A stretch of DNA of 27,690 nucleotides from a virus (IMGVR_UViG_3300044267_004151:1-27690); one strand, 5' to 3'; shown: positions 1-27,690, counted from the stretch's first letter. Notes: generated by a model not told the origin, from the letters alone. Numbers and translations: made by a program.

Positions 1-27
1 CATAGATCATTCCAAGAGCACCAGTAA
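1..27 (+). repeat. 27-bp direct terminal repeat, left copy (circular assembly overlap)
   Basis: CATAGATCATTCCAAGAGCACCAGTAA at 1-27 is identical to 27663-27689. Confidence 0.95.
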
Positions 28-679
28 CAACTGGGTTCTGTGCATCTCCACGATTTAATGCGTGAGAGAATGATGTAGATTGTAATAACAACGAATAATA
101 TGAAGGTGAGCAATATAAAAATAAGTCACCATCAGTAATATCAACATCAGAAGCAATCAAATCTGCTATTGCATTTTGTACCCCAGTTTCTGCTTGAGCA
201 ACAGTCAAAGCACCTGCACCAGTAGAGCCAGTATCCACAGTGTTTGTTGTTGTCATCAACTCAGTTAATACTGCGTCATTAAAATGTTTACCAATAGCAT
301 TACCCATTGAACGAGCAAATCCATCAAAAACATCAAATGAAGATTGAACTGCTACCATATCAGCAATTCTTTTACCAACAGCAGGCTGTTGATTGCAAGT
401 AATCAAACCCTCTGCATCTGTATCATTTGAAAATGTAACACCAGTATCAATCTCATTTCCACTATCAGTCTTTTGACCAGTATAGTTATTAGCAGTTTCT
501 GCATTTAATATTGGAACATTAATTTTCTCACCTTTCTGACCACCAGCAAGTGAGGAAAAATCCATAATGTTATTTCTTATTTCATATTGTCTTTCAGCAT
601 AACCAAGAACTGCTTCAGTCCAGAGTTCTTGAAGAAAACTGGTCTGCGTTTGGTTCTGAACAGTAGTATTATTAGCCAT
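1..679 (-). CDS. Major capsid protein (HK97 fold), N-terminal 226 codons; continues across the circular junction into 27662..27436 (about 301 aa total)
   Basis: Absent from the ORF track. ATG at 679 with AGAGGT RBS. Open frame MANNTTVQNQTQTSFLQELWTEAVLGY...GEKINVP...VTGALGMIY runs to base 1. ELW and G-x-x-I-x-V-P motifs are typical of phage capsid proteins. Directly follows the scaffold gene. Confidence 0.9.
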   Translation of the reverse strand, partial: MANNTTVQNQTQTSFLQELWTEAVLGYAERQYEIRNNIMDFSSLAGGQKGEKINVPILNAETANNYTGQKTDSGNEIDTGVTFSNDTDAEGLITCNQQPAVGKRIADMVAVQSSFDVFDGFARSMGNAIGKHFNDAVLTELMTTTNTVDTGSTGAGALTVAQAETGVQNAIADLIASDVDITDGDLFLYCSPSYYSLLLQSTSFSHALNRGDAQNPVVTGALGMIY

Positions 680-695
680 TTAAAATTACCTCTTT

Positions 696-1253
696 CTAAT
701 TTTTTTGCGATTTAATAAAATCAGACCACTTTTTTTGCCTTTGATGAGAACCCATTTCTTTTACTCCTTTCTTAAAGGAATTAATTGAAGGGTCTTCAAA
801 TTGTCTCGCACTTGGTTTAGTACTATCAACTGGAACTGATTTTTCTTTTATTGTAAGTCTTTGTGCTACCTTCTTTAATTGAGCAGTAGGTAGGTCACCA
901 AATTCCTCTTTATCTTCATCCGTCATTGTGGACAATATGTCCTCACGGATTGATGCCTTTAGAGATTGAAGTTCTTCATCTGATTGTTGCAACTTTTCTA
1001 TTTTAGAAGATTGTTCAGCAATAATCTCTTTATGCCTTCCTTCTTCTTCTAACTTTTTTTGTTTTCTAAGTCTTTCAGAATCTTGATATTCTTTCAATTT
1101 CGCTTCTGCATCTTGTGCCCTTTGTCTATACTTTTTGCTTTCTGCAATATACTTCGCATTCTCTGTGCGATTATCAGTTTCGGGCATTTCTGATAAAGTC
1201 TTTTCAGTACTATCCACGTCTGTTTCATTTACTGAATTTTGTTCTTCGGACAT
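696..1253 (-). CDS. Capsid scaffolding protein
   Basis: Highly charged coiled coil (ESKKYRQRAQDAEAKL...KKLEEEG), acidic N-terminus, immediately upstream of the capsid gene, AAGGAGG RBS. Confidence 0.8.
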   Translation of the reverse strand: MSEEQNSVNETDVDSTEKTLSEMPETDNRTENAKYIAESKKYRQRAQDAEAKLKEYQDSERLRKQKKLEEEGRHKEIIAEQSSKIEKLQQSDEELQSLKASIREDILSTMTDEDKEEFGDLPTAQLKKVAQRLTIKEKSVPVDSTKPSARQFEDPSINSFKKGVKEMGSHQRQKKWSDFIKSQKN

Positions 1254-1287
1254 CTGTCCTCCTTATTTAATTAATGATTACAGATGT

Positions 1288-1335
1288 ATTTTATTAAGGG
1301 TAGGGTATCAAATATTAGTTACTTATCGGTAACCT
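1288..1335 (-). promoter_or_regulatory. Putative activator-dependent late promoter, copy 1 (drives scaffold and capsid)
   Basis: 24-bp box at 1312-1335 is identical to 7824-7847 and contains the dyad GTTAC-N6-GTAAC. A TAAAAT -10 hexamer lies 18 nt downstream on the minus strand (1293-1288). Confidence 0.75.
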
Positions 1336-1369
1336 AAAATATTAAGAACTCTATTCGATTGTATGTTAT

Positions 1370-1573
1370 TTAATTTGTTGGATTGTTGTAGCAGTCGCGT
1401 ATTGCGTCATATAATATAAACATCCAATTGAATGAACCGGTAATGATATCATAAGTCCTAACTTGTCCAGTTCTTATATACTCCCTAGATTCTGCAGAAA
1501 AAAACCAACTATAAAGGCAAGCCATATATCCCACAAAATAGATTGCAACAAGACCAGATATAAAAACCTTCAT
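1370..1573 (-). CDS. Small membrane protein, function unknown
   Basis: Hydrophobic N-terminal helix; ATGA overlap with the upstream gene. Confidence 0.6.
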   Translation of the reverse strand: MKVFISGLVAIYFVGYMACLYSWFFSAESREYIRTGQVRTYDIITGSFNWMFILYDAIRDCYNNPTN

Positions 1574-2019
1574 ACCCTAAATGACATTCGTGTAGTCTTG
1601 TTCAGTCTTTTCATATTGGTTTTTAAATTAATACCAACTTGCTTATCAACAAGAGTTTCAACCTCTTTCGGTATTTCCTTATCATTAAATATGATTCTCC
1701 CAAGTTTCATATTATTAATTACCTTATTGAGATTTTCACCGGCTTGAAGCCATCCGACCCAAACACCCTTACCTCTCTGGACAACTGCTTGAAGGTCTGC
1801 CCACATTTCGCCAGTCAAAGTTAAATCAACTTTTGCAGTCTGCCTTGAAACTTGCCTTGGTATTTTTCCGGCTCCTTTTTTTTGTATATATTTTTTACTT
1901 TTATATTTCCCGAAAGGTTTTATCCCCTTGAATTTCTTTTGCCCTAATGTTCTTAATTTTTGGACAACCTCGTTTCCAAGTTTATACCAGAATGCGTTTG
2001 TTGGTAAGATGTTAGCCAT
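1570..2019 (-). CDS. Putative neck/tail-completion (virion morphogenesis) protein
   Basis: Basic protein with YxxKY..KK and VDLTLTGEM motifs, resembling Mu gpG/HK97 gp10-like proteins; follows the head morphogenesis gene. Confidence 0.55.
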   Translation of the reverse strand: MANILPTNAFWYKLGNEVVQKLRTLGQKKFKGIKPFGKYKSKKYIQKKGAGKIPRQVSRQTAKVDLTLTGEMWADLQAVVQRGKGVWVGWLQAGENLNKVINNMKLGRIIFNDKEIPKEVETLVDKQVGINLKTNMKRLNKTTRMSFRV

Positions 2020-2801
2020 TAATTTGCCTTATTTTCATATAGTTCTTGTAATGTATAAGGAAGGTATTTATCTCCCCTATCATCAATTAATTTATTTGCT
2101 TTCTTGCCTTCCCATAAATCCCTTGAAGATGATGTAACCGGTTCCCATTGATGCCTACAATTATATCCCCCACCATCTCTGAACGCACCGGGGAATTGCT
2201 TATCTATTTCCTTTATTGTTAATTGGCCTGCCTTTAATTGTTCTAGACATACATCCCTTGTCTTACCATCAGCCGGACCATAATAAAAGAATTTTTGCTC
2301 ATCCGGTGCAAAGTCTGCCTGCAATCTTATAACTGAGCGTCTAAATGTACTCATCGCAGTAGTTACAAGAGTTGTTAAATTTCCCCTACTTATATTTGGA
2401 AGATTAACGATAGAATTTACTATCATATCTCTTGTCATACCACCTACTAGACCTTGTATTACAGATGTCCTAACAGTATTACCGAGCATACCTGCATTCT
2501 GAAGAAATGTTGCTTGTTCAAAGTCTAATAATGATTCAAGCATATTTTCAGATATAGGTGCGTAATATGGAGTATCCTTGAGTAATGCTTGATATTTTGT
2601 AATTAAGTTTCCAACAGTACTCTGGTAACCCATTTCATTCAATATATATGTTTCCATATTAATATTGGACATAATAGAAAGAAACTCCTCTCTATCAAAT
2701 TGGTTGTGCATCTCTATAATAGATTCAGCCAACCTAACCATCATATTGTTTACTTCAGTTGCGTATTGGCTTGCAACTCTATCAATAGCATTGTAATCCA
2801 T
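2019..2801 (-). CDS. Head morphogenesis / minor capsid protein (SPP1 gp7 / Mu gpF-like)
   Basis: Follows the portal gene; YYGPADGKTRDVC and GGYNCRH motifs. Confidence 0.8.
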   Translation of the reverse strand: MDYNAIDRVASQYATEVNNMMVRLAESIIEMHNQFDREEFLSIMSNINMETYILNEMGYQSTVGNLITKYQALLKDTPYYAPISENMLESLLDFEQATFLQNAGMLGNTVRTSVIQGLVGGMTRDMIVNSIVNLPNISRGNLTTLVTTAMSTFRRSVIRLQADFAPDEQKFFYYGPADGKTRDVCLEQLKAGQLTIKEIDKQFPGAFRDGGGYNCRHQWEPVTSSSRDLWEGKKANKLIDDRGDKYLPYTLQELYENKAN

Positions 2802-4102
2802 TACTCACTCCTTAAAGCATCAAGAAGTGTTGAGCCGGCAGTCTTTGGCTTTCTTTCCTCTAAATAAGCAATCGCATCCTCTCTTGTCATATCTGGATTT
2901 CTTTCTTGTAATATATCAGCAAGGTCTTTAATACCCATTTCTAAATCATCCTTTTCTAATGCTCTTTTTTCTGTAGGTGTATATACTTCTTCCATTTCGC
3001 CAAAATCTACATTTTCTAATTCACCAATATCATAGTTCTTATGAAACTTGATTAACATCCTTTCCATTTCGTGTAATTCGTGTTCAAATGCTCTCCATCT
3101 AGAAATATCTTGCTTTCGCTTATCTCTTAATTCAACATTTCTAATTGCTAACGATATTCCAGAACTTGCTTGTTCGGATTCATCAACAAATGATGTTGAA
3201 AGATGGTAATTTTGTGCTAACATTTTATACATAGACCTAATAGAAGAATCTATACTTTGCGAAGTATCCGGAGGTGTCAATATTTCTAAAGATGAATCAA
3301 TTTCTATTCTAGTTATAATGTCCGGTGCTATTGCTAAATGATCATTCTGCATTTCACCTTTTGCAACCAAATACCCGAAAGATTGGAATTTTTGATTCTG
3401 ATGCTTTGTTGTCATTAAATCAATTATTTTTAAATGCCCTCTAATTAGGTCTTGTGAAGCAGTTGTATCCAGATAGAAGGTATCTGGTCTGCCATCACGA
3501 AATACGGGGATTAAAGGCATTTTTTCGTAGAAATTCAACCCTTCTGGATTGTATTCGTCAAACATTTTTTGATTACTATTAATTTTAAATTGAAATGCTT
3601 CTGAATCAGACCAATATTGCCAAGTTTCTTCACTGTCATCATATACACTTGACCTAGTAGCAAGAGGGAAAGAAAACGCAGTAGGCTTTAATGGATCATC
3701 ACCTTCAAATTCCGGCTCAAAATCATATATAATATCATACTCTACTCTATCATTCCTCCAACAAGGTTTAATTATAACAAGTTCCAAAAGATTGACAAGT
3801 CTTTCAAATCTTTGTAGGCGATGATTTTTATTTGGGTGTAAGTATTCTTCATACTTTGAACTTGCCACTGTTCTTTTTGGTGGTTCCATATAGCATAAGG
3901 AAATTCTATCTATAACTCTTTTAGTAATGTTACTTGAACAGGGTGTCATCTTATCAGACTTTGAACCAATGTATTCACCCATTACATATTCATCTGTATT
4001 GCCGTTATAATAATCCAATGCTTCCAACCTTTTTTGTAGCCATACTTCCTTTTCTTGTTGTTGTGCATCGTGTCTGCTTTTTAGTACGATTGATTTGCTC
4101 AT
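2801..4102 (-). CDS. Portal protein (SPP1 gp6-like)
   Basis: 433 aa directly after TerL; LDYYNG, NITKRVID and ASSGISL motifs. Confidence 0.88.
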   Translation of the reverse strand: MSKSIVLKSRHDAQQQEKEVWLQKRLEALDYYNGNTDEYVMGEYIGSKSDKMTPCSSNITKRVIDRISLCYMEPPKRTVASSKYEEYLHPNKNHRLQRFERLVNLLELVIIKPCWRNDRVEYDIIYDFEPEFEGDDPLKPTAFSFPLATRSSVYDDSEETWQYWSDSEAFQFKINSNQKMFDEYNPEGLNFYEKMPLIPVFRDGRPDTFYLDTTASQDLIRGHLKIIDLMTTKHQNQKFQSFGYLVAKGEMQNDHLAIAPDIITRIEIDSSLEILTPPDTSQSIDSSIRSMYKMLAQNYHLSTSFVDESEQASSGISLAIRNVELRDKRKQDISRWRAFEHELHEMERMLIKFHKNYDIGELENVDFGEMEEVYTPTEKRALEKDDLEMGIKDLADILQERNPDMTREDAIAYLEERKPKTAGSTLLDALRSE

Positions 4103-5355
4103 CTCGGTAATGCCCTCACATTATTTTTATGGATTCTTGATTTAAACATAGACCAAACGGAATATCCAAATCCGTCTGATGCGTGTGTTAATTCTTTGTT
4201 ACTCTTGTCTATATCTGCTCTCGTTCCTTCCCGATTTATAACTTGCTCAAAATCCTTAATTAATACCTTACATTTGGGATCAACTATTGTACTTCTAAGC
4301 ATTCTATTTGTTAAATTAACTCTTTCAATTACTGGTATTGCTCTCCTCTCTGCTCTTACATCAAAACCTTCATCTCTTAATATTTGGTGGTCTGACCTCC
4401 TAGAACTTGTAGACCTATTCCGACCAGCAGGGTCTGGTATACAGATATACTGATTGTTCGGATATCTTGATTTTATTTCTCTCGCCATTCTTTCTGTCAA
4501 GAGTTCCCCTTCCCCTGCGTGACGCAACACGACCTCGTCAATGACACGAATTTTGGGATCATTATTGTATTGTTGCCATAGTATTGATACACTAGGGGAA
4601 ACATTGAAGTCTTGTCCAATGACAATGGGTAATTCAGAATTATACTTATTTTTTTTGACATAATCTCTATTCCACATATAGTATGTTTGTTGTGAACCGA
4701 ATATATGACAGAACTCCCCATTTAAATATGCCTTCTGGAGTTGTTCATCATAATTCATTTTTAAACTTTCAATAAACTCTGAAGGCAACGACTTGTTATC
4801 CATTGTCCTTCCTTGGATTAATTCATACCCATCTTTGGGGTCTGATTTCCAAGTTTCATACACCCAACCAAAACCCTCCGGAGTGGTTGTTATGAATGCT
4901 TGTAAACTATTACCTTCCCTCAACCTTGATAACAACATAAACCAAGCACTGTTATCTTTAAGTAAATCTGCTTCATCTAATCCTCCGGCACTAAGATTCA
5001 AGCCTGCCCACCTTCTATTGTTTTCTGCTGACCTTAAAATTATATCAGCATACCCAAACTCTCCCTCTCCCCATCTTACAGTATACCTTAAATCAGAAGC
5101 AGTATAATCAAAATCCCAGTTTGCTTCCTCTAACATTTTTTCAAGTGTTGGTTGAAGCACATCCTTAATCATTGGGTAGGTTGGTTCTGCTAGTAATATC
5201 AACCCTCCCGGATTTAAACCACACTGACGCATACCCATTAGAACGAAAGCAGTAGTTTTCCCACTCCCATATCCGGCAACCAGAGCAGGATACTTCGCAT
5301 TTGATCTTATAAAAAGATTCTGATGCTTGTATACATTAAATCTCGTTGAGTTCAA
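4099..5355 (-). CDS. terL: Terminase large subunit
   Basis: Walker A AGYGSGKT, Walker B GLDEA, motif III TTTPEG, nuclease motifs GQDFN and HASDGFGY. Confidence 0.96.
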   Translation of the reverse strand: MNSTRFNVYKHQNLFIRSNAKYPALVAGYGSGKTTAFVLMGMRQCGLNPGGLILLAEPTYPMIKDVLQPTLEKMLEEANWDFDYTASDLRYTVRWGEGEFGYADIILRSAENNRRWAGLNLSAGGLDEADLLKDNSAWFMLLSRLREGNSLQAFITTTPEGFGWVYETWKSDPKDGYELIQGRTMDNKSLPSEFIESLKMNYDEQLQKAYLNGEFCHIFGSQQTYYMWNRDYVKKNKYNSELPIVIGQDFNVSPSVSILWQQYNNDPKIRVIDEVVLRHAGEGELLTERMAREIKSRYPNNQYICIPDPAGRNRSTSSRRSDHQILRDEGFDVRAERRAIPVIERVNLTNRMLRSTIVDPKCKVLIKDFEQVINREGTRADIDKSNKELTHASDGFGYSVWSMFKSRIHKNNVRALPR

Positions 5356-5659
5356 ATCCTATTGGTCGTTCTTTTGTAGTCGTTTCAATTTTCTGTGCCG
5401 GCCTACCTTCCATTCGGTCTGCAATAAACTGAACTGCCCACGACCTACCCTCTAATGCGTAAGAATATACCATTCTCATTACTACTTCAAGTTTTGGGAT
5501 TCCATCCTTTGTACCTTCTTCTTCCCCTATCTTTCTCAAGATATCTGGAATAGACTTAACTCCCTTCGGTCTACCCTTTCCTACTGAAGCAGTATTTCCG
5601 GCTACAAACCTTCCATTTGAACTCCGATTACTTCCGTTTTTAATCGGCTCTTTACTCAT
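5336..5659 (-). CDS. terS: Terminase small subunit (DUF5681-like); start likely at 5659 rather than 5722
   Basis: MSKEP...NGRFVAGN...GRPKG and DRMEGRP motifs; upstream of TerL. The ATG at 5659 overlaps the end of the TET gene. Confidence 0.75.
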   Translation of the reverse strand: MSKEPIKNGSNRSSNGRFVAGNTASVGKGRPKGVKSIPDILRKIGEEEGTKDGIPKLEVVMRMVYSYALEGRSWAVQFIADRMEGRPAQKIETTTKERPIGFELNEI

Positions 5660-6455
5660 ACTTTTCAAATCCTTTGACTGCATAAAATATATGCGTATTT
5701 CTAAACGACCTATCATCATCAAGATAAATTGGCGTAACTCCGTGTATATTCCTCCAAGCCGGATACACGCATAAGGAATTGTCAGACATTTCTATTGTAG
5801 CATTATAATCCGGTATATGTAAATGTCCACCTTTGGAGTTCAATCTTTTTGTAAAAATCATATTTAATGCACCCTTAATATTACCTCTATCAAGATGGAA
5901 GGGTGCTGATATATTATAATTTGATATACTTCCAGTAAATAAATTTGCAAACCTCCATTTACTCGGTACTTTATCTATTAATCTTTTTTGTTCTTTATAT
6001 GCTTCCGGCATTAATTTTTTAATAATTTTTTCACCTTCCAAGCAAGCCATTAACATACCTTTAATATAATTCTTAGACTTTGCTTCTTGATGAACTGCAC
6101 TCCGTCTTGGGAAAAATCTTTTCATATGGGGTTTTGCCATTATACTTCCCAATATTGTACTCATCTGAATTGTCTGTGTAGCCTTTGCTTGTTTTCTTGT
6201 CAATCCTTCTTTATACACTGCTGAGAATACATCGCTTCTTTCTAATAAAGATTTTGGAACATTTTTACTACGAAACTCTATATCTATCAAATCCAATAAC
6301 TTTCTTAATTTACCTTTTAAGTTTGTCTTATAAAATCCAATAATATTTCCATTTTCTGTAAAGTAAGTATCATCTACTATATTGGGTGTAAAATGTTCAC
6401 ACCGGTTTCCAACTTTGTATGGATGTTTAATATTTTTTAATTCAAGCGATTTCAT
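5652..6455 (-). CDS. TET/JBP-family 2OG-Fe(II) dioxygenase
   Basis: FTGSISNYN, HxD motif (PFHLDRGN), GG-x-L, HGVTP distal His and R-x5-Y (RNTHIFY) 2OG-binding strand; adjacent to a glycosyltransferase. Confidence 0.85.
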   Translation of the reverse strand: MKSLELKNIKHPYKVGNRCEHFTPNIVDDTYFTENGNIIGFYKTNLKGKLRKLLDLIDIEFRSKNVPKSLLERSDVFSAVYKEGLTRKQAKATQTIQMSTILGSIMAKPHMKRFFPRRSAVHQEAKSKNYIKGMLMACLEGEKIIKKLMPEAYKEQKRLIDKVPSKWRFANLFTGSISNYNISAPFHLDRGNIKGALNMIFTKRLNSKGGHLHIPDYNATIEMSDNSLCVYPAWRNIHGVTPIYLDDDRSFRNTHIFYAVKGFEKYE

Positions 6456-7194
6456 TTACTTTTTTATTATAATAATTTGCTATACCTTTTATATCAACCT
6501 TTGTGTCTATTCTTCCACTCTTTTTGATTAGCCTTGTGTATGGTCGCCATTCTTTATGTAGCCTTTCAGCATAGACTGCATCAGTTTTGTTTTTATATAA
6601 ATCAAACAATCCTCCCTTATTGCTACCAACATTTGGACATCTGAACCAATACTTATTAAACCTCATTACTCCGTGACCATTCTTAATTGTTTTTAATGTA
6701 AAATTTCTATCTGACTTTAATTTCCAGTCGCCAAAATCCCAAGAAATGTTTTCCAAGTCTAGCATTACACAACAATCAACGAATTTACTATTAATTGAAT
6801 ATCTATTTTTTTCACTCCAAGCAAACTGACAATAATTTATACCGTATAATTCAAATGGTAATTTCTGTGCTTTTAAATAAATATCCTCCCATATCTCAGC
6901 ACCAGTTGTTATGCTTTTCCCATCCTTAACTATTCCAAAGTTCTGTATATCATCATCTGAAATAATTACCCATTTATAATTGTTATTTTTTGACCAATCC
7001 ATTACATAATTTCTCATATATGATATGCCTTGATCATTTTTATCTATAGAAACTTTATTGGGAACCTCATATTCCTTATACTCTTGTGGCTCTATAAAAT
7101 GATGTACTGGGAACAGACCTTCAAACAATTTGTATGTTCTTGTTTTTTTTCTATTTTTTGTTCCTATACAGACAACTATATCACTACCGACCAT
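6442..7194 (-). CDS. TET-associated glycosyltransferase (TAGT / GREB1-like GT-A fold)
   Basis: I-x-T-K-x-R N-terminus, EPQEY..Y, G...RN, DDD metal-binding motif and GSNKGG; between the ParB-N and TET genes. Confidence 0.8.
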   Translation of the reverse strand: MVGSDIVVCIGTKNRKKTRTYKLFEGLFPVHHFIEPQEYKEYEVPNKVSIDKNDQGISYMRNYVMDWSKNNNYKWVIISDDDIQNFGIVKDGKSITTGAEIWEDIYLKAQKLPFELYGINYCQFAWSEKNRYSINSKFVDCCVMLDLENISWDFGDWKLKSDRNFTLKTIKNGHGVMRFNKYWFRCPNVGSNKGGLFDLYKNKTDAVYAERLHKEWRPYTRLIKKSGRIDTKVDIKGIANYYNKKVNEIA

Positions 7195-7195
7195 A

Positions 7196-7789
7196 CTACT
7201 TCTCTTTCAATTTCTGTTTGAAAAATCTTAAAACCTCTCCACCCATATATCCAAATTTACCATTCAAAGTTTGATATATTTTTACTGCTTCATCATAATC
7301 TTCTAAATTAAATTCTACTAATATTGATTTTCTTGTTCCTTTACGCATATCATCCACCAAATCAGAAACATCATCATCTTCTAAAATTGAATAATCAACC
7401 TCATCAAACAATCCAAGTAATGACTTTTCACTAAATCCCCAGTCTTTTAATTCTTCTACATCAAAAAAATTAGCAAGAGCATCATAATCCCATCCACCAA
7501 TATTCTTATTTAACCTTATATTCAATTCCTTTTCTTTCTCAAGGGATAGATTGACCTCCACACAAGGAACAGTATCTATCTTTAAATCTTTTGCAACTAA
7601 CAATCTTTGATGACCACCCACAACAATATTCTTTCTTTCATTGTGGCGATTCACTATTATTGGATCAACAAGCCCGAATCGCTTAATGCTATCCTTTAAT
7701 TGATTGTACTGTTCTTTCGTTAATTGCCTTGGATTGTATTCGGCAGATATTAGGTCTTTTGATAGATATTGGACTATTTTCATATTCAT
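7196..7789 (-). CDS. ParB/Srx N-terminal-domain protein
   Basis: YNPRQ, LKDSIKRFGLVDPIIVN, GGHQR, LNIRLNK and G.WD motifs. Confidence 0.9.
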   Translation of the reverse strand: MNMKIVQYLSKDLISAEYNPRQLTKEQYNQLKDSIKRFGLVDPIIVNRHNERKNIVVGGHQRLLVAKDLKIDTVPCVEVNLSLEKEKELNIRLNKNIGGWDYDALANFFDVEELKDWGFSEKSLLGLFDEVDYSILEDDDVSDLVDDMRKGTRKSILVEFNLEDYDEAVKIYQTLNGKFGYMGGEVLRFFKQKLKEK

Positions 7790-8528: not shown

Positions 8529-9041
8529 CTATTCTACTTCTTTAAGATATTTTTGAATAGACTTAGTATAAATCAGTACCTTTTCTAAATTACTATTACG
8601 CTTAACACTTTTCAATTGCCCAGTATTTATTCTTCTTTTTATTGTTGATGCAGACAATCCTAAAACCATTGTTGCTTCAGTTAGTGTTAATACCGGTCTA
8701 TCCATTAAATTATATCCAAAACTTCGGCTAGTGCTACTTCGTTTCTCGGTATCCATAGTCCGACCACTAGCCTTGCTTCCCGAATTACGGGATTCCAAAT
8801 CTAACCGATCACAGAGTTCAGCAAATTTTCTATCAAGCCGTATACATACATACTCAAGTTTGTCAACTTTATTAGAATATTCACCAATTATTGCTTCCCA
8901 TTCAACTGGAGGATGCGAGTTTTCTTCTAAATTTATAATTCTTTCTTTTAATGTTTCTATTTCCTTTACTCTTTCTTTTAATATTTCTAAAATCTTAGGG
9001 ATGTAGGTAAATACTTCTTCAACTTGACTAAATGTTGCCAT
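8529..9041 (-). CDS. Coiled-coil protein with a C-terminal HTH_17 (excisionase/MerR-like) DNA-binding domain
   Basis: LTLTEATMVLGLSASTIKRRINTGQLKS. Confidence 0.75.
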   Translation of the reverse strand: MATFSQVEEVFTYIPKILEILKERVKEIETLKERIINLEENSHPPVEWEAIIGEYSNKVDKLEYVCIRLDRKFAELCDRLDLESRNSGSKASGRTMDTEKRSSTSRSFGYNLMDRPVLTLTEATMVLGLSASTIKRRINTGQLKSVKRNSNLEKVLIYTKSIQKYLKEVE

Positions 9042-9580
9042 TATAATTTCCTCGCTATCGGTTCTATTGACCAGTGAACTTGGTCAAGTTTTAATCTTAC
9101 TTCTTCTTTATAGTACTCGTCTTTATATTTTGGATGAACCTCAACCTTCCAATTATCTACATCAATAGAATATACCTTATAAATAATTGCTTCACCTTTA
9201 TCTATATTAGGCTTAACAAACCAGTACTCATTAGGTCTTTTATTTTCATTATGATGTGATTTTTTATTGACAGACAATAAATTTTTTGATAAAGAACATT
9301 TTACATCAATAGAATTTTCATTTATCAATATATCCGGCTCTGCAACCGGTCTTTTCTCAATCAAAGAAGCACCTACAAAATTAATATTATTTTCCTCTAA
9401 ATAATGTCTTGCAATTAATTCGCCAAAAATACCCATCGTTGAAGTATAATTTTCACTCTTACCTCTATACCTTGCAGTGCCTTTACTATATATATTAGAA
9501 CTTAAATTGCTTCTAACAATAGCCAGTTCCTCTGATATTGAGTATAATACCTTGGGATATGTTATACTATCTACCCTCAA
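9041..9580 (-). CDS. PD-(D/E)xK nuclease-fold protein
   Basis: G.FGE helix, PD and IDVK catalytic pattern. Confidence 0.65.
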   Translation of the reverse strand: MRVDSITYPKVLYSISEELAIVRSNLSSNIYSKGTARYRGKSENYTSTMGIFGELIARHYLEENNINFVGASLIEKRPVAEPDILINENSIDVKCSLSKNLLSVNKKSHHNENKRPNEYWFVKPNIDKGEAIIYKVYSIDVDNWKVEVHPKYKDEYYKEEVRLKLDQVHWSIEPIARKL

Positions 9581-9944
9581 CTGCCTTCTTTAATTCTTTC
9601 TCTAGATGTTCTATTGTCATCATTAAACCAAGCCAATCATTGAATTTTAGATCAACTCTTTTTTGACCTTTATAATTATAAATTATAATCGCTTGCTTAC
9701 CAACCGGACAATCCCTCTCAGACTGCTTAATCCAAGAAGGCATTGAAATATTTTTTTGATTTTTACATTCAAAACACCATTCAGAAAAGATTGATTTATT
9801 ATTAATGACAATTATATCACCTTTGAAATCCATTCCTCCAGAAGATGGAGTTCTTTTCACATTTGCATCTGGAGATACTTTGTTTATCTCTTTCGCACAG
9901 TCTCTTTCAAAGCGATTACCTTTATCTTTTACATTTATCACCAT
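9567..9944 (-). CDS. Holliday junction resolvase (Hjc-type)
   Basis: KGNRFER, R.P.SGG, GDI, FECK and W..Q motifs. Confidence 0.85.
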   Translation of the reverse strand: MVINVKDKGNRFERDCAKEINKVSPDANVKRTPSSGGMDFKGDIIVINNKSIFSEWCFECKNQKNISMPSWIKQSERDCPVGKQAIIIYNYKGQKRVDLKFNDWLGLMMTIEHLEKELKKAVEGR

Positions 9945-16103: not shown

Positions 16104-18284
16104 TTATACCTCTCTTGCTTTGAATTTAATTTCTCTTACAGATATTTGTAGTTCTGTAATTATAAATTTTATTTTATCATTTGCCGTGCCATCGCTATTT
16201 GCGTCATTCCAATCTTTGTTGAACGGCTTTAATGCTGAAGAATCTATACAAACTATATCGCCAATATCAATAGTGTAAAATTTTGGATTAACTAATGTTC
16301 CGGAAACTAGTATTTTCATATCTCCCAATATATTGAAATAATAATTAGCAAAATCTTCAACACCAATATCTGCCCCAGTTTCAGTCTTGTATACTGCGTC
16401 TAAACTAACTTCCTTGATATTTTCCTTAGTTTCTATATTATACTTATCCCTTATTGCGTCAGAGCCACCAGATTTATATTCAGTATACCTTCTATAATTA
16501 TTTAACTCTTGGTATTTTGCATATCTAATTCTATATTCTGTTTCCATTTTACTAAATCTTGTATGAGAGATATTTAATTTAGAAATATCATTATCGGTAA
16601 AATCCCAGTCTTGAGAAACACTACTATAATCTGATTTAAGAACAATATACTTTGATACAAGTGTTCTTGAATATGTAAAAATAAAGCAACCCTCATACTG
16701 CAACCTTTCCAATACATCCTTAACATCCTCCGGCTCTGAAATACAATATCTAACTTTCCAGTCACTTCTATCGCTCAATGAGGTTGCCCAGTCAATAGGA
16801 TTATCAGTTACACCACAATATCTATACAAGATATCCCTATGTGCTTCAATAACATTAGTACAGAGAGCCGGTGATCCGTTCCAACTATCTAAAAATCCAT
16901 CTTGATATGAGTATAAAACCTCCTCTACTGAATCACTTGAACTTTCGAACTCCCCTATTGCTTTTACATAATCAACATCAGTTTTCGTTGCACCACTATA
17001 AAGGTATACTGAACCTCCAGAGCCACTATAACTTACTGAAAATTTTAATGATATATTTTCAGCATATTCTCCAGAAGAAAGGCTGACTGTTTTTATATTG
17101 TTTAAATCAGATTGCGATGAAGGGGATGCAGATGTTATCGTCATTGTATGTGCATCTGTCCAACTTGTATCACTATTTACTGCGTATTGCCATTTCATAA
17201 CTATTGCACCACCACTCGGCATCACAATATTACTCGCTCTGATATCTGTCTGAAATTCAATTTTTGCTACATTACTCGTGGATATAGTGCCGGAAGGGAA
17301 CGGAAATCTAAACTCACAGTACCATTCCTTTGTGGCTAATGGTAAATTCGTACTAATAATATTTCCTAGATTACACTTATTGTAAAATGTATTAGGCATA
17401 GAGCCAGTATTAACTACACTTGAAGGGTAATACCCAAATCCTCTTTTTAGATTCTTTTTTGCTATTGAATAATAGTATGTACCATTCTCACCAGTAGCAG
17501 ATGCACTCGTCTGAGTATTTTGATCTGTTAATGGGATATAGGCATTTATACTCTTGTCAAATAAAAACAAAGCACCTTTACCACTTTCTTTTACCTCTCC
17601 GACTGCATACCAATGATACAGATTGTTTGTTGAAAATCTTGGGCAAGGTTTTAATCCAATATATAAATCTTCATCTGCTACATTTTTATTTGAGTAAGTT
17701 GGTAGACTTCCAGAATATCCGTGGTCAAAATCCCCATAACTTACCGGTACTGGCACAGATTCACCTAATGTGCCGGATACAGTAAAATTGTTTGGAATAG
17801 AAAGATGATCCCAAGGTCTTTTCGTTTGAATTTTTAATTCACAAAAATCGCTTGTTGCACTGACATCCACCAACCTACCTACATATAATTGTATTAGATG
17901 ATTTAAATTTCCCGGAGATAAGTCACCATCAGCCAAATCTTTTTGGAATGCTATATATAAATCACATCTTCTATTTAAATAATCATTATCACCATAAAGC
18001 AATAGTTCAGACAATTTGTTATTAGGAGTATAATTTTGATGGCAGGAAATCGTGATGTCACCAGTCTTTGAGGTTGATTTTTCCAAGTCCAAACTCTGCC
18101 TAATTGTTGGGTCATTTTTTATTATTGGATAACAATTTTTAGGAATATCATACGAAGAGTTATCTGTAAAATTCCCAGTTGATATTGCAAAATTCTTCCC
18201 ACTACCTTCATCAGAATGGTATAAAACTGCTATCAGTATCTTTTCTAAATTTTTTGTTGATTCTGTTATCTTTCCTACTGCCAC
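16104..18284 (-). CDS. Tail tip / hub (Tal-like) protein
   Basis: 726 aa directly after the tape measure gene; YVGRL, VPVSYGD and IDIGDIV motifs. Confidence 0.7.
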   Translation of the reverse strand: MAVGKITESTKNLEKILIAVLYHSDEGSGKNFAISTGNFTDNSSYDIPKNCYPIIKNDPTIRQSLDLEKSTSKTGDITISCHQNYTPNNKLSELLLYGDNDYLNRRCDLYIAFQKDLADGDLSPGNLNHLIQLYVGRLVDVSATSDFCELKIQTKRPWDHLSIPNNFTVSGTLGESVPVPVSYGDFDHGYSGSLPTYSNKNVADEDLYIGLKPCPRFSTNNLYHWYAVGEVKESGKGALFLFDKSINAYIPLTDQNTQTSASATGENGTYYYSIAKKNLKRGFGYYPSSVVNTGSMPNTFYNKCNLGNIISTNLPLATKEWYCEFRFPFPSGTISTSNVAKIEFQTDIRASNIVMPSGGAIVMKWQYAVNSDTSWTDAHTMTITSASPSSQSDLNNIKTVSLSSGEYAENISLKFSVSYSGSGGSVYLYSGATKTDVDYVKAIGEFESSSDSVEEVLYSYQDGFLDSWNGSPALCTNVIEAHRDILYRYCGVTDNPIDWATSLSDRSDWKVRYCISEPEDVKDVLERLQYEGCFIFTYSRTLVSKYIVLKSDYSSVSQDWDFTDNDISKLNISHTRFSKMETEYRIRYAKYQELNNYRRYTEYKSGGSDAIRDKYNIETKENIKEVSLDAVYKTETGADIGVEDFANYYFNILGDMKILVSGTLVNPKFYTIDIGDIVCIDSSALKPFNKDWNDANSDGTANDKIKFIITELQISVREIKFKAREV

Positions 18285-20446
18285 TATATCTTGCCCTCTC
18301 TGACTGCAATTTCTATGGCTGGGGCAATCTGCTCAACTGCAAATTCTTCAGTCATAACATTCCCCTCAATAGATATATGGTAATTATTTTGCTTGACTGG
18401 TTCTTCTTGTCTTGCAATATTCGATATATTTGTAATATTGCTTATTGGTGCAGGTATACTAGAGCCACCCACAATCCCACCGGCTTCAAATTTATTTATA
18501 ATACTATTCTTTATAAGTTTATCATCCCCAGAATTAACTGCCTCCATCAAAGGTAAGCCTAGTTTCTCAACTGCCTTTCTATTTATGATATATTCTCCTT
18601 GCTCTGCTTCTATTATCGTACCACCTTGTGAATGTCTTTTGCCTCCAATAAATCCTCCATCCTCATAAGGTGAATTTGCTATTGTCGCTAATTCTATTGC
18701 CCCAGCAGAAGCAGTTATACCAGCAAGAGCAATATTGAATGGTGGAGGTGCTGAACTTAATGCTTTTGAAACTCCAAGAGCGATATTAGAAACTGCTTCA
18801 GCATACTTTGCCGGTTTTAATGATTTTCTATTTTGCAAATCTTTCTGTCTAAACTTTTCTTTTATATTATTTATTTTTGCATTCTTTGTTTCCTCACTCA
18901 AACTTGACTGTTGAACTGCCTTCAGTTCAGATTCCATATCTTCATCTAATTTTTGTTTTTTAAAGTCGTAAAGGTTACTGTAAACATCACCAACAGCACC
19001 TCCCCACTTTGATACTTGCCCTCCTATCTTTTCAAGACCTTTGCCCCATTCTTCTGTAAGTTTTTCCATCCCTCCAGAATCGCTATCATCACCACCTTCA
19101 CCAGAACTGAATACTTTTTTTAATGGTTTCTTAATTTTCTTGCCACCTTCTTCCGATGTTAGAGCCATATTATTTAAAGCATTAGACCAAATTTCATCCA
19201 TCTTATCAGCAAAATCTTCGACATCTTCAATAGTATCTGATCCGAAAATATCTTTCATTAAGTCTGTTTTCATTCCTTGTTTTTGCAGGTCAGCAATCGT
19301 TTCATCATACTTTGCCGTAATACCATCAGTATCAATTAATTCACTCAATTTTAAAGGTTCAAACCCCAAACTCGTAGCAATAGAATTATACTGTTTCTTA
19401 ATAAAATTAATTGCCTTTGCAAATGTATTTTGCATATTTGCTGACAATACTGCGAGGTCAGATTTTAACATTTCCCAAGCAATTTTTCCACCTATTACGA
19501 TTGGCTCAAAAACATAAGAAGAAAAACGACTTATCCAGTTGAATAATTTTGTAAAAGCACCTACAATAATCGGAGGTATTAATTCAACTGCTTTTTTCCA
19601 AGTAAATGAAAACAATTCCGGTATTCCTCCAAGTGATACTCTAAATGTATCAACAACTGCTTGCCCTAGTATAGACATATTGTTTCCGATATTCTTAAAT
19701 GATTTTGTCCAATCAATTTTTCCAGTAAAATCAAACGCACCTGCCAAAGCATCAGTAACCTCTGAAACTGCCGGCAAAATCTTTTCCCCTATTTCTGTTC
19801 CTAAATTTTTTAAACTCGCACCGAATCTTTGAAAAGCATCCCCTTGTTGTTCAATTATACCACCAGACCTTTCAACATTTTTTAAACCGATTTCCATAGT
19901 TTCATTGATTAAAGCCTGCTTTCTTTCCTCCTCTGTCAAAGCACTTGCAGATTTGTTCAATATTTTAGCATACTTTTCATTTGCCTTGTTTACATCTAAT
20001 TGAATCCCTAAATTATCAAGAATCATTTTTGATCCTCTACCAAGACCAGTTACTATTGAATTTAACATAAAATCCATAGATTCACCAGTTGCTTGTGAAG
20101 ATGCTCTCGCTATTTTTAGCATATCATCAAACCTACTAGTATCCAATCCAAGTAGAGATGCTTGATTTGCTTTCTGCATAAGTTCCATATCTGAAATCAT
20201 ACCAGATGTGGCTTTCTTCATTGAATTTAATAATTTATTCGGTTCGTCTTGTAGGTTTATGAAGGCTCTTTCAACACCCTGCATATCCCCTGCCATCTTT
20301 GCCCACTCAACAGACTTTGTTCCGGCTTGATAAAGGACATACGCACCTGCTAATTTTTTTACACCGGCAGTTACCTTCCCAAGAGCAGATGTAACATTTC
20401 TTTCCCCTTTGGTTTTAAAATCAATTATATGCTTATTTACGCTCAT
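18284..20446 (-). CDS. Tail tape measure protein
   Basis: 720 aa, helical; S.MILDNLGI motif; C-terminal GG.IGGKRHSQGG.IIEAE.GEYIIN; follows the chaperone gene. Confidence 0.93.
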   Translation of the reverse strand: MSVNKHIIDFKTKGERNVTSALGKVTAGVKKLAGAYVLYQAGTKSVEWAKMAGDMQGVERAFINLQDEPNKLLNSMKKATSGMISDMELMQKANQASLLGLDTSRFDDMLKIARASSQATGESMDFMLNSIVTGLGRGSKMILDNLGIQLDVNKANEKYAKILNKSASALTEEERKQALINETMEIGLKNVERSGGIIEQQGDAFQRFGASLKNLGTEIGEKILPAVSEVTDALAGAFDFTGKIDWTKSFKNIGNNMSILGQAVVDTFRVSLGGIPELFSFTWKKAVELIPPIIVGAFTKLFNWISRFSSYVFEPIVIGGKIAWEMLKSDLAVLSANMQNTFAKAINFIKKQYNSIATSLGFEPLKLSELIDTDGITAKYDETIADLQKQGMKTDLMKDIFGSDTIEDVEDFADKMDEIWSNALNNMALTSEEGGKKIKKPLKKVFSSGEGGDDSDSGGMEKLTEEWGKGLEKIGGQVSKWGGAVGDVYSNLYDFKKQKLDEDMESELKAVQQSSLSEETKNAKINNIKEKFRQKDLQNRKSLKPAKYAEAVSNIALGVSKALSSAPPPFNIALAGITASAGAIELATIANSPYEDGGFIGGKRHSQGGTIIEAEQGEYIINRKAVEKLGLPLMEAVNSGDDKLIKNSIINKFEAGGIVGGSSIPAPISNITNISNIARQEEPVKQNNYHISIEGNVMTEEFAVEQIAPAIEIAVREGKI

Positions 20447-21091: not shown

Positions 21092-22117
21092 TTACATTGT
21101 TAATCTTAATATTTTTGATGAAGAACCCAACACTCTAGCACCCTTTACTGTTACTGAATTTCTTAATTCTGGATTACCAGTATCAACAGAATGTTCAGTT
21201 GTCCTTCCGTAAACATATACATTCCAAAGACTATTATTCCCAACTGCCATAACATTGTTTCCAGAATAATTTTTAGCACCAGTATTGTCAAAATTTTCAT
21301 CTCTTTTATAGGTTACATTACCTATTATTTCCCAAGCACCATTCATTATATACCCATCCGGGTCTTTTGAACCTCCGTGCCATCCCACTCTTTCAATATT
21401 CCTCTGAACTGAAACAGAATAAGAGTATGGGTGAATTTCATATCCAGCACTACTAGATGATAGGTATGTTCCGGCACTTGTCCAGTCTCTGAAGTTAGGT
21501 GCAGTTCCCCAAGTACTTGTATATGTATTATCACCGTCAGTCATATCATCTGTATAAGAGGTATCATACCCAGTTACAAATGTCATTTCCACTATCGGTA
21601 AACCACCCTCAGAATCTATTGCGTGATTTAATACCATTGAAGTAGCAACACACCCTTTGTATACAATATCTTTTTTTACAGAAGCACTTGCAGTTTCGTA
21701 TCCACCACCACCAATATGAATACAAGCAGATTTACCATACCCTGCCGTAGCCATTACTGCATTATGTTCAAACTTTGGTGCTGAATACTGCCCAGTTATT
21801 TGATTGTCGCCATCATTATCCTCAAATAAGTATCCACACATCATATCTAATACGACTGGAGTGCATATCGCTGAAAATGATATTTCATACATCTCACTCG
21901 AAGAATCATAAGCAGTTGCATCTATTTCAATGCTCTTTTGCCCTTGAAGAACTGGAGATTCTGCGACTGATGCCTTTATGTCTACTATTGTCGGAGGACT
22001 AATTAATGGTATTTCATAAGCAGTTGCCGAACCTATGGTTGAACTGCCCATATTAGTTTCCTCAAAAATACCTAATCTTAAATCCTTTGAACTCTTTAAT
22101 TGTGTACCTACTGCCAT
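21092..22117 (-). CDS. Tail tube / major tail protein, paralog 2
   Basis: Position upstream of the chaperone; E...G N-terminus, YKGC strand; homologous to 22133..23368. Confidence 0.7.
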   Translation of the reverse strand: MAVGTQLKSSKDLRLGIFEETNMGSSTIGSATAYEIPLISPPTIVDIKASVAESPVLQGQKSIEIDATAYDSSSEMYEISFSAICTPVVLDMMCGYLFEDNDGDNQITGQYSAPKFEHNAVMATAGYGKSACIHIGGGGYETASASVKKDIVYKGCVATSMVLNHAIDSEGGLPIVEMTFVTGYDTSYTDDMTDGDNTYTSTWGTAPNFRDWTSAGTYLSSSSAGYEIHPYSYSVSVQRNIERVGWHGGSKDPDGYIMNGAWEIIGNVTYKRDENFDNTGAKNYSGNNVMAVGNNSLWNVYVYGRTTEHSVDTGNPELRNSVTVKGARVLGSSSKILRLTM

Positions 22118-22132
22118 CTAACTATCTCCTTA

Positions 22133-23368
22133 TTAAAAGTCTATGTTTACTATGTTATTAGAATCTGAATGTAAAGTCCAAGTTTCAGAATTATATGTCT
22201 CTGCAACATAATTAACGGCAGTTGCGAACCTATCATTTTCAATATGCGTTACAATATGGTCTGCATTGTATGTTCCTTCAGAAGCACCTGCTATTGTAAC
22301 CTTCTGACCTACACCTAATCCGTGACCACTTGAAGTAAACCAAGTATCTGAATTGTCGCCTGCTGGACCATTTGCAAATACAGTGACGGCACCGGTTGCT
22401 CTATGATTTCCAGTACCAGTATATGAATATGTTGCCCTCATATCTGCACTTCCAGTATCTACACTGCAATCATTCATCTTTCCGTTCAATCTAACATCAT
22501 AACCAGTTCCGGACACTTTAAATCCAGATATTTTATTATTACGCAAATAATCATCAAAATTTAATTGATTTGCATCGTGCTTGATTGTTATAGAGCCTTC
22601 AACTGAATGGTTGCCCACCTGCAAATATCCAAGTGGGTTGTTACTACCATCATATCCAACTCTCTGTATATCCCTTGAAACATTTAATGTATATCCATAC
22701 GCTCTACAATCATAATTAGAACTGCCTGCCGTTTCACCAATCCAGCGACCATTAACACAATCAAGGTCTACAAAATGTTGAGCCACCTCACTATAATGAG
22801 CCGTAGGACTTCCTGCTGAAGCAATATTAGATAAAGCAACCGGATAAGCAGTTACCCAAGTCAATGTCATTATTGGGAAGCCACCATTAGAATCTATCGA
22901 ATGAGCAACTTCTACACTTTTAAGGATACATCCTTTAAATAATAAATCATTATTTGGTGTAGCAAAGTCATATCCTGCACCCTTAACCAGTATCACTTGA
23001 GATGAATTATTTGCAACAGTAGCACCGGCATCCAAATTTGGCTGAGTGTAGGCACTCGAACTTAGGTAAACTTGCCCACCAAGTAAACCTTTACCAGAAT
23101 ATGTCATAGCATCAGCAGTAGCCAAAACTTGAACACTAATTTCCCATAAAGCATTGTCCAACCTTTGCTTTGATTGGTTATGGTCAAGAAAATATTTTCC
23201 AGTCCTTTCAGAACCTACATCTAAAGGCACATTCCCAATATTAATAGAAGGTGGTGCTATTGCATTTAGTAAATGGTATGTACTACTTGTTCCAGCACCT
23301 ACAGTTGCTTCATCGCCTATTACAAATTCAATTTCTTGCGATATTTTAAAATTCTTACTTATTGCCAT
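22133..23368 (-). CDS. Tail tube / major tail protein, paralog 1, with an extra C-terminal beta domain
   Basis: FKGC...HSIDSNGG motif; C-terminal GHGLGVGQKVTIAG module. Confidence 0.7.
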   Translation of the reverse strand: MAISKNFKISQEIEFVIGDEATVGAGTSSTYHLLNAIAPPSINIGNVPLDVGSERTGKYFLDHNQSKQRLDNALWEISVQVLATADAMTYSGKGLLGGQVYLSSSAYTQPNLDAGATVANNSSQVILVKGAGYDFATPNNDLLFKGCILKSVEVAHSIDSNGGFPIMTLTWVTAYPVALSNIASAGSPTAHYSEVAQHFVDLDCVNGRWIGETAGSSNYDCRAYGYTLNVSRDIQRVGYDGSNNPLGYLQVGNHSVEGSITIKHDANQLNFDDYLRNNKISGFKVSGTGYDVRLNGKMNDCSVDTGSADMRATYSYTGTGNHRATGAVTVFANGPAGDNSDTWFTSSGHGLGVGQKVTIAGASEGTYNADHIVTHIENDRFATAVNYVAETYNSETWTLHSDSNNIVNIDF

Positions 23369-25371: not shown

Positions 25372-25515
25372 TTACTTGCCCACCAATTTAAAGATTGATT
25401 TTTTTATTGATGTCCATATAAGGTCATCCCATTCAGTTGGTGATAATGCAACCAATTTATCAATCGCCATTATTCCTATTAAAAAGTATTCCCAATTATT
25501 TATTACAAAATCCAT
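25372..25515 (-). CDS. 47-aa holin-like membrane protein (not in ORF track)
   Basis: AAGGAG RBS; MDFVINNWEYFLIGIMAIDKLVALSPTEWDD... Confidence 0.65.
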   Translation of the reverse strand: MDFVINNWEYFLIGIMAIDKLVALSPTEWDDLIWTSIKKSIFKLVGK

Positions 25516-26532: not shown

Positions 26533-26538
26533 AAAGCA

Positions 26539-26781: not shown

Positions 26782-27158
26782 TACCTCAACTCAAAATGAA
26801 CAAGATCATCAAAACTATTATCGTAAAGATTGTGATCATTATTCCAATCTCCACCCCAAACAATAGGAATCCCCAAATGATATGCAATACCTTTAATAAT
26901 TCCTGCGACATAAATAAAATTTTCCCTATCTTCCCAATTAATTGGATATGGTGCTAAGTCCACTGCCAATCCTTCTATATGTTTAGAATCGAGAGTTTTG
27001 GTTTTGCCCTCTTTTTTCAATTCCTTCTGTCTTTCAAGTGAACGCTTGCCCTCAATAAGACTAATATCCACATACTTGATTACCTCTGAAAGAAGTTCTT
27101 GCAAATCTTCATTAAGTTCATCCAAAACTCTCTTTGATTTCTTTCCGAATTTCGGCAT
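26778..27158 (-). CDS. Endolysin, peptidase M15 (L-Ala-D-Glu peptidase-like)
   Basis: EG.RS..RQ, SKH..G.AVD, WGGDW and D..HFEL motifs. Confidence 0.93.
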   Translation of the reverse strand: MPKFGKKSKRVLDELNEDLQELLSEVIKYVDISLIEGKRSLERQKELKKEGKTKTLDSKHIEGLAVDLAPYPINWEDRENFIYVAGIIKGIAYHLGIPIVWGGDWNNDHNLYDNSFDDLVHFELRY

Positions 27159-27162
27159 CTTA

Positions 27163-27378
27163 TTACTTGCCTTTTTTAGGTATACTTTTCTTTCCGGCAG
27201 GTGCTATTGTGCCACCTTTCTTAGCAGATTTTTTACCTTTTTGACCACCACCAGCACCACTACCAGCACCACTGCCAGAATAATACTTTGTAAATGCTTT
27301 GCTACTTATCCTTGAAACACTACCGGATGATCTTCTTCCACCCAATTTCCAACTTCTCACCTTTCCAACTTTTTTCAT
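27163..27378 (-). CDS. Lys/Gly/Ser-rich basic protein
   Basis: AAGGAG RBS; 71 aa with no acidic residues. Confidence 0.7.
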   Translation of the reverse strand: MKKVGKVRSWKLGGRRSSGSVSRISSKAFTKYYSGSGAGSGAGGGQKGKKSAKKGGTIAPAGKKSIPKKGK

Positions 27379-27396
27379 ATTTCTCCTTAATTTGAA

Positions 27397-27424
27397 TGGG
27401 GTGGATATATTTCAACCCACCCCA
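27397..27424 (-). terminator. Stem-loop after the capsid gene (partial terminator or mRNA stabiliser)
   Basis: TGGGGTGG...CCACCCCA inverted repeat just after the capsid stop codon; weak U tract. Confidence 0.65.
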
Positions 27425-27435
27425 GAATATAACAA

Positions 27436-27662
27436 TTAGTCAGTTATTACACAAGCAAGGTCGTTCACTAACAATGAAACGCCATAACAAGAACTTGCTA
27501 CTAAATCAGTAGAAAGATATGCAACATTTTCTTGTGCTTTTACATTTGGCTCTATTGAGAATGCACAACCCATAGCATTACGATGATACAATACACCAAT
27601 TTTATTAGCATCTGTACCAGTCGCTTCTAATGCACCTGCACTATTAGCATATACTTTCGCAC
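27436..27662 (-). CDS. Major capsid protein, C-terminal part
   Basis: In frame with 1..679 via the terminal overlap (GMIY|GAKVY). G-x-I-Y-G-x-x-V, YHRNAMG and YGV motifs are typical of capsid C-termini. Confidence 0.9.
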
Positions 27663-27689
27663 CATAGATCATTCCAAGAGCACCAGTAA
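27663..27689 (+). repeat. 27-bp direct terminal repeat, right copy
   Basis: Identical to 1-27. The following base differs (C at 28, T at 27690). Confidence 0.95.
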
Positions 27690-27690
27690 T

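Follow-up and report, generated by a model that had tools for sequence, protein, structure and literature searches.

The sites that Type II restriction enzymes recognize are known to be nearly eliminated from the genomes of non-temperate double-stranded DNA phages (Rusinov et al., 2018, PMC6286503). A close precedent for the case presented here comes from the lytic Listeria phages A511 and P100, in which GCWGC (LmoJ2) and GCNGC (LmoJ3), the sites of a known Type II system, are under-represented (PMC10059834). In this study, we analysed the phage sequence IMGVR_UViG_3300044267_004151:1-27690 (the window, i.e. the whole stretch of 27,690 bases), which lacks the word GCNGC altogether and, with it, every Ala-Ala dipeptide in its predicted proteins. 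Similar to the phages surveyed in PMC6286503, the window holds short Type II-like words at less than a tenth of expectation, and no integrase was found by family searches of its proteins. It differs from them in the simultaneous elimination of about a dozen words and in that the purge reaches amino-acid pairs; in the main text of that survey, the terms 'amino acid' and 'codon' have 0 occurrences. GCNGC is depleted in the Listeria phages and in the window alike, but A511 and P100 retain some sites, for the most part within their tape measure and tail lysin genes, whereas the tape measure gene of the window is devoid of them.

For none of the four possible central nucleotides does GCNGC occur in the window, against 22-23 copies expected under a dinucleotide model and 33.5 under within-gene codon shuffles (Poisson P 2.8e-15). 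Given that every Ala-Ala is encoded by GCN GCN, this absence makes the dipeptide impossible in any open reading frame (ORF) and any frame. Across a chosen set of 49 window ORFs (8,947 amino acids, 473 of them Ala), Ala-Ala is found 0 times, as compared to 28.6 +/- 5.1 expected and a minimum of 15 across 2,000 shuffles. It is the most depleted of all 400 dipeptides (z -5.7; P ~4e-13 under shuffling), followed by Pro-Gly and Gly-Pro, both with 3 copies vs 15.9 expected. A further depleted pair is His-Val (1 vs 8.4), which can be encoded only via CATG or ACGT. A preliminary description of this DNA had claimed that the proteome, including the tape measure, capsid, and tube-like proteins, is free of Ala-Ala and that GCNGC is wholly absent, and both claims hold when counted against composition- and codon-shuffled expectations. 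Its further statement that GCNGC is missing from the other frames is correct for the window, but weak when the window is taken alone, where ~28 of the ~32 expected copies lie in frame and the out-of-frame deficit is 0 vs 4.4; it becomes strong only once relatives are pooled.

Such relatives were obtained from three scans of viral and metagenome contigs, which gave 149 loci with a terminase identity of at least 48%; these fall into 71 lineages at 90%, and 45 lineages of at least 8 kb were scored together with the window (46 genomes). A query with the tape measure protein returned no relatives among viral contigs. Ala-Ala was scorable (in-frame expectation of at least 5) in 43 lineages and is lost in 12 of them (11 vs 199.6), intermediate in 8, and normal in 23 (413 vs 462.9). 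The key test is provided by GCNGC outside the reading frame, which amounts to 3 vs 49.7 in the 12 Ala-Ala-poor lineages and to 71 vs 74.6 in the 23 normal ones (rho 0.53, p 0.009, n=23). Since the out-of-frame copies follow the Ala-Ala split, the driver is the DNA word. CCNGG and GGNCC behave like GCNGC in this analysis across the family. Six close relatives keep CCGC (235 copies) but have GCCGC at 0 vs 39.6 expected, showing that the purged word is the full GCNGC and not only GCWGC. The window itself cannot separate the two, as its CCGC purge already excludes GCSGC; a combined loss of GCWGC and CCGC in place of GCNGC was rejected for its clade on the same GCCGC count. On a quick terminase tree (SH-aLRT support only; the window, two outgroups, and 36 family representatives taken among the first 70 loci), Ala-Ala loss appears at several separate places and the trait is patchy. 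For example, one clade with full support unites L034 (Ala-Ala 0 vs 20) and L082 (3 vs 33) with L055 (29 vs 28).

The consequences for the proteins are visible at homologous sites. Ser122-Ala123 of the terminase (4987..4992, minus strand) is located just before the DE acidic pair of the Walker B motif. Here, 50 of 119 homologues have Ala-Ala, as do 15 of the 24 family lineages that keep the dipeptide, and where it is lost, SA, AS, AG, or AC is found instead; the window carries SA and its ten closest homologues SA, AS, CA, or AC. In 21 aligned columns, Ala-Ala fills 142 of the 383 cells of Ala-Ala-keeping lineages, whereas the 169 cells of Ala-Ala-poor lineages in the same columns include SA 16, AS 11, AD 8, AG 6, AK 6, VA 5, and AT 4 times, and AA once. 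SA and AS are conservative and need transversions, which points to selection, while VA and AT are the expected products of 5-methylcytosine (5mC) deamination at GCNGC. The spectrum of replacements in these alignments thus points to escape from GCNGC by selection rather than by deamination. That selection on DNA is strong enough to constrain protein sequence, as the preliminary description had proposed, is well supported by the out-of-frame loss in the same lineages, by Ala-Ala at the aligned positions of homologues, and by the purge of the full GCNGC word.

This constraint is not limited to Ala-Ala. Ala, Pro, Gly, Thr, and Val each have one fixed two-base codon prefix, and AA, PG, GP, TV, and VT therefore force a gapped palindrome at any spacing. 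We scored the 25 obligate pair-by-spacing combinations over the 46 genomes and in 62 control loci. AA (ratio 0.60; near zero in 11 genomes), PG (0.14; 28 genomes), and GP (0.12; 28 genomes) collapsed, AxxA (0.74) and PxxG (0.79) fell in part, and AxA, PxG, and GxP were unaffected (0.94-1.19). The controls gave 1.02 for AA and, except for GP, ratios of 0.94-1.14. Among large relatives, the five closest ones (L169, L174, L170, L089, and L079) have A-x-x-A reduced to 6 vs 47 and GCN7GC to 10 vs 71, a site type that we take to be that of MwoI; in the window, any such effect is no more than partial (18 vs 28 and 20 vs 23, respectively). A-x-A, which had been described as standing in for Ala-Ala, does exceed expectation in the window (43 vs 28.6), but only slightly so in the 12 Ala-Ala-poor lineages pooled (216 vs 199), and we reject it as a general compensation (1.08x). 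A cultured phage shows a dipeptide loss of the same kind: Prochlorococcus phage MED4-184 (JF974286; control L249) has Pro-Gly at 0 vs 22, CCWGG at 0 vs 36, CCSGG at 0 vs 8, and CCGG at 0 vs 22. Dipeptide loss is thus not special to the family of the window, although MED4-184, unlike the window, keeps both Ala-Ala (74 vs 59) and GCNGC (137 vs 77).

GCNGC is one of about a dozen words purged from the window. With the proteins and codon usage held fixed, AGCT (0 vs 72) and CATG (1 vs 56) are purged with higher significance than GCNGC, and ACGT (1 vs 35), CCGC (0 vs 34), GCGC (1 vs 14), GGCC (2 vs 14), and GACTC (0 vs 20) are depleted as well. HCAGG (2 vs 104), CCWGG (0 vs 27), and GGWCC (4 vs 20) add to this list, as do low absolute counts of GAGTC (0), GAATTC (0), RGATCY (0 in coding DNA), CGCG (1), and GGNCC (4). 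When avoidance is defined as a compositional bias (CB) below 0.1 with more than 15 copies expected, using a composition- and codon-aware expectation, the avoided words are GCNGC, AGCT, CATG, ACGT, CCGC, GGCC, CCWGG, GAGTC, and HCAGG. The purged words are palindromes of 4-6 bp, 2-N-2 palindromes, and short asymmetric words, and a six-mer table and gap profile show that avoidance depends on the exact word and spacing: palindromic contexts are depleted and their neighbours spared. Accordingly, the palindromic six-mers RGATCY, ATCGAT, TGTACA, ATGCAT, and GAATTC around partly depleted cores are all at 0, while TGATCC, AGTACT, and TTGCAA are retained. CAGG/CCTG is purged throughout the window except after G (ACAGG 1, TCAGG 1, CCAGG 0, GCAGG 36), and the relatives L062 and L013 are likewise without HCAGG. 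A protective GpC mark was considered for the survival of GCAGG and rejected, as the GpC present in each of GCNGC, AGCT, GCGC, and GGCC did not save these words from the purge; the exempted word contexts of the window formed no consistent pattern that would signal a DNA mark.

We consider it likely that selection by Type II restriction enzymes of the host explains the loss of GCNGC and Ala-Ala. Type II endonucleases in the host population, one of them recognizing GCNGC, would have destroyed genomes carrying the site, and most target words could have been removed by silent codon changes, for which the levels of AGCT, CATG, ACGT, and CCGC (0-1 vs 34-72 expected for the same proteins) provide the basis. 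While many of the purged words need no amino-acid change, silent changes offer no way out for GCN-GCN, CCN-GGN, and GGN-CCN, and the amino-acid pair itself had to change. Ala-Ala would have been exchanged for a tolerated neighbour, usually SA, AS, AG, AD, or AK, as found at the aligned sites. Lineages of the family presumably met different enzyme sets and each would have lost its own words and pairs, with the purge in the five close relatives extending to GCN7GC and the i,i+3 spacing A-x-x-A. From the sequence patterns, which are direct observations, we infer the enzymes, the host, and the selective agent. On this reading, the purged words might be a fingerprint of the host's restriction-modification systems, as the preliminary description had suggested. 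The mechanism itself is known; the present case adds a trait that is switched on and off among members of a single family, tests at aligned sites and outside the reading frame, and the reach of the purge to A-x-x-A.

Several observations weigh against restriction selection as the explanation or limit the case for it. The lineage groups were defined on Ala-Ala counts, so that their Ala-Ala totals are circular and independent evidence comes only from the types of replacement and from GCNGC counted out of frame. Of the 21 words in a test panel, family genomes have purged 2-14 (the window 11) and 66 control loci 0-2, but the panel was picked from the family itself and the controls are mostly GC-richer prophage loci, both of which favour the contrast. 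Gly-Pro is somewhat low in the controls, too (0.67). The palindrome rule has exceptions, given that HCAGG is non-palindromic and that CCGG, ACCGGT, and AGTACT are kept or enriched; HCAGG, with GCAGG retained, fits no nameable enzyme site, and restriction selection does not account for the enrichment of CCGG. Candidate enzymes for the purged words are Fnu4HI (for GCNGC), AluI, NlaIII, HpyCH4IV, AciI, HhaI, HaeIII, EcoRII, AvaII, MlyI, BstYI, ClaI, BsrGI, NsiI, and EcoRI. Searches by GTDB terminase scan, cultured phages, ERF, and integrase linked no host, methyltransferase, or endonuclease to the window phage. Finally, GTNGC, VA, and AT are raised, and methyl-driven mutation may thus have contributed, although this does not explain the zeros.

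Taken as the full cause, such mutational erosion would have host orphan 5mC methyltransferases mark the words and C to T deamination remove them without any cutting. GTNGC, the decay product of GCNGC, is mildly high in the window (129 vs 112 +/- 5 under a null that preserves the proteins and codon counts and penalizes 25 purged words), and so are VA (40 vs 30; 1.34x) and AT (43 vs 30; 1.42x); VA also reaches 1.19x in the other Ala-Ala-poor lineages vs 1.04x in those keeping the dipeptide, and CpG loss tracks TpG gain over the 46 genomes (rho -0.69). However, AT is not raised in the other Ala-Ala-poor lineages (1.00), and neither are the decay products of other purged words (AGTT 280 vs 308; ATGT 263 vs 283); an excess is found instead for the neighbouring words AGCA, CAAG, and AGGT. 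Together with the predominance of SA and AS, which need transversions, at homologous Ala-Ala sites, and with an exact zero at the conserved terminase site that mutation alone would not be expected to produce, this makes erosion an unlikely explanation.

Two further alternatives assign the cutting to other nucleases, and we regard both as very improbable. In one, an endonuclease of the BisI kind would cleave methylated or hydroxymethylated GCNGC in phage DNA that was modified by the phage's own TET/TAGT enzymes or by the host. The BisI family targets modified GCNGC and the window encodes a TET/JBP-type enzyme, but the purge shows no association with TET (found in 3 of 9 lineages with TET vs 9 of 37 in which no TET was seen, p 0.68, with partial loci), and an enzyme of this kind covers just one of the dozen words. 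Moreover, PMC6286503 reports that GCNGC is not avoided in its role as a Type IIM site, with CB<1 in 22.5% of genomes. In the other, a phage nuclease would cut host DNA at GCNGC and the word would have been purged from the phage genome for self-protection. One candidate is a 179-amino-acid protein (9041..9580, minus strand) with a PD...D-x-K pattern recognized by eye and with homologues in the Ala-Ala-poor relatives L169 and L089; another homologue is present in L071, which keeps Ala-Ala (13 vs 15), and no family could be named for it. The second candidate, at 9567-9944, matches the RusA-like resolvase family, and a single nuclease cannot cover a dozen words. Selection against Ala-Ala at the level of protein or translation, or chance, with the DNA word as a by-product, would find room in the window alone, where most expected GCNGC is in frame and the out-of-frame deficit is small; it is refuted by the pooled out-of-frame loss and contradicted by the normal Ala-Ala of close relatives and controls, by the many purged words without amino-acid effect, and by the shuffling probability given above. 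We regard it as almost certainly wrong.

This case demonstrates that selection on short DNA words, most probably exerted by restriction enzymes of the host, can alter virion and packaging proteins, including residues beside the catalytic motif of the terminase, and in sister lineages even the non-adjacent spacing A-x-x-A. Given that some relatives show the trait and others do not, the family constitutes a natural experiment on the cost of the substitutions and on the speed of the purge after a host change. The missing pairs AA, PG, GP, and AxxA are readable from proteins alone and, provided that the link is borne out by hosts, would give uncultured phages a barcode of host range. A literature search, mainly of the open literature at title level, found no publication on dipeptide loss through site avoidance.

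The window also carries a putative DNA modification cassette, for which the ParB-dependent phage T-dioxygenase (5mYOX) pathways are the closest described counterpart (O'Toole et al., 2026, PMC13229309). It comprises three adjacent genes directly before the terminase genes (5652-7789): a stand-alone ParB_N protein (PF02195; 7196..7789, minus strand) as its first gene, a TET-associated glycosyltransferase, TAGT (PF20691; 6442..7194, minus strand), and a TET/JBP-type 2OG-Fe dioxygenase (PF12851; 5652..6455, minus strand), the last with 34.1 bits at a cut-off of 34.9. C5 and N6/N4 methyltransferases (PF00145, PF01555) gave no match in the window genome at E up to 1, and because no C5 methyltransferase was found, the dioxygenase is likely to be a ParB-dependent thymine dioxygenase. 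The likeness to the 5mYOX pathways is one of genes only; across relatives, the cassette is not linked to the GCNGC purge, and the T-containing words AGCT, CATG, and ACGT are purged regardless. Nor did the TET cassette convincingly predict any of 14 purged words (best p 0.04, for CCGC, uncorrected). In several relatives, a fusion of ParB to an N6/N4 methyltransferase occupies the ParB_N slot, and a survey of 144 proteins picked from 261 clusters found C5, N6/N4, Dam, and MT-A70 methyltransferases, Mom, QueC/FolE/PTPS, ADDT, or TET/TAGT in the pre-terminase slot, a variety expected under heavy restriction pressure. Swapped modules at L210:6349-7826, L076:5961-6395, L248:4970-6025, L188:6255-6971, and L034:6786-7223 include FolE/QueC/PTPS (7-deazaguanine type), ADDT/aGPT, Mom, C5 methyltransferases, and a Vsr gene.

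CCGG runs counter to its purged neighbours: the window has 63 sites, a 2-3.5-fold enrichment, and coding DNA holds 65 vs 24 under synonymous shuffling or 33.5 +/- 4.3 under a constrained null that forbids 25 words (TCGA and CCGA, also low, were not penalized). As the constrained null falls well below 65, a mere sink effect of the purged neighbours accounts for the excess only in part. The sites are distributed along the genome and in two frames, most strongly in GCCGG/CCGGC and ACCGGT; of the 66 Pro codons that precede G, 34 are CCG, and of the 45 Ala codons that precede Gly, 15 are GCC. Across the family, CCGG is near zero in 32 of 46 genomes, and L169 and L089 enrich CCGC instead. It is conceivable, though unlikely, that the phage purges words it cannot protect, even when this costs it Ala-Ala, and actively keeps CCGG as a landing site for a host methyltransferase, whose borrowed 5mC would then be oxidized and glycosylated to a hypermodified base by the ParB-TAGT-TET cassette, which has no methyltransferase of its own; the purge of CCGG in 4 of 8 scorable TET-bearing lineages counts against this idea.

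With respect to the host, the best 80 of 263 loci from a terminase-alignment scan of GTDB include one close match (L089, 69%) and 79 at or below 35%. L089 is a 9.3-kb contig in a Woesebacteria metagenome-assembled genome (MAG) that has no C5-methyltransferase match, and it probably represents phage sequence that was misbinned. The names attached to ERF homologues were uninformative as to the host. The integrase of a temperate relative (L183) had 44 matches, three of them with a phylum name (Nitrospinota, 35%; Marinimicrobia twice, 29%), and identities of 29-35% are too weak to name a host. The motifs CTAG and CTCC described for marine Marinimicrobia (PMC8919816) fit the window poorly (CTAG 34 vs 73; CTCC 115 vs 116).

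The window represents a small tailed-phage genome of 27.7 kb with 34% GC, in which all credible genes lie on the minus strand. Its first 27 bases (1..27, plus strand) directly match positions 27663-27689, and the capsid ORF spans the window ends, with both pieces matching phrog_267. Judged by this terminal repeat and the capsid pieces at both ends, the genome is probably complete and circularly permuted; the source collection labels the record as linear and 86% complete. All 10 of the runs listed with the phage are seawater metagenomes, and 6 carry at least half of its words; 2 of these 6 may be its source. An independent contig (L001) is 99.98% identical to the window across 6.3 kb, and ~1-kb pieces in other seawater runs show no differences from it; the absence of GCNGC and Ala-Ala is therefore not an assembly artefact.

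Family matches in the window cover terminase, capsid, tape measure, ERF recombinase, replication initiator, RusA-like resolvase, phosphoesterase, and M15 endolysin, and the terminases of cultured phages are at most 34% identical to that of the window. Among the family-matched proteins, the terminase large subunit (4099..5355, minus strand) has 23 Ala, the tape measure protein (18284..20446, minus strand) 65 Ala, and the N-terminal part of the major capsid protein (2..679, minus strand, continuing at 27436-27690) 23 + 13 Ala, each with 0 Ala-Ala (5.8 expected for the tape measure protein). Tube-like protein 1 (22133..23368, minus strand; 37 Ala, 0 Ala-Ala), labelled from the preliminary description and gene order without a family match, is followed by its 26% identical paralogue, tube-like protein 2 (21092..22117, minus strand; 24 Ala, 0 Ala-Ala). 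In this tandem arrangement (21092-23368), the first gene has an additional C-terminal stretch of ~75 amino acids. A SpoVG-like protein (11299-11646; Atlas label) adjoins the ERF recombinase, a slot that in phages often holds a single-strand binding gene.

Several features of the relatives stand apart from the GCNGC purge. One group (L024:1-18786; also L021, L022, L023, L025, and L179) is nearly free of CpG, with CG counts of 4 vs 408 in the 18.8 kb of L024, 1 vs 280 in L022, and 3 vs 310 in L025; GpC is normal to high and Ala-Ala is kept, and members encode N6/N4 methyltransferase, ParB-methyltransferase, and Mom-family genes. Dockerin type I domains were found at protein C-termini in the family (L024:86-736, L245:1-432, L203:3-1841, and L207:1-1536), a possible clue to host or attachment. 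In the Ala-Ala-poor relative L082, an ORF of at least 1,778 amino acids follows the capsid genes (L082:15829-21162).

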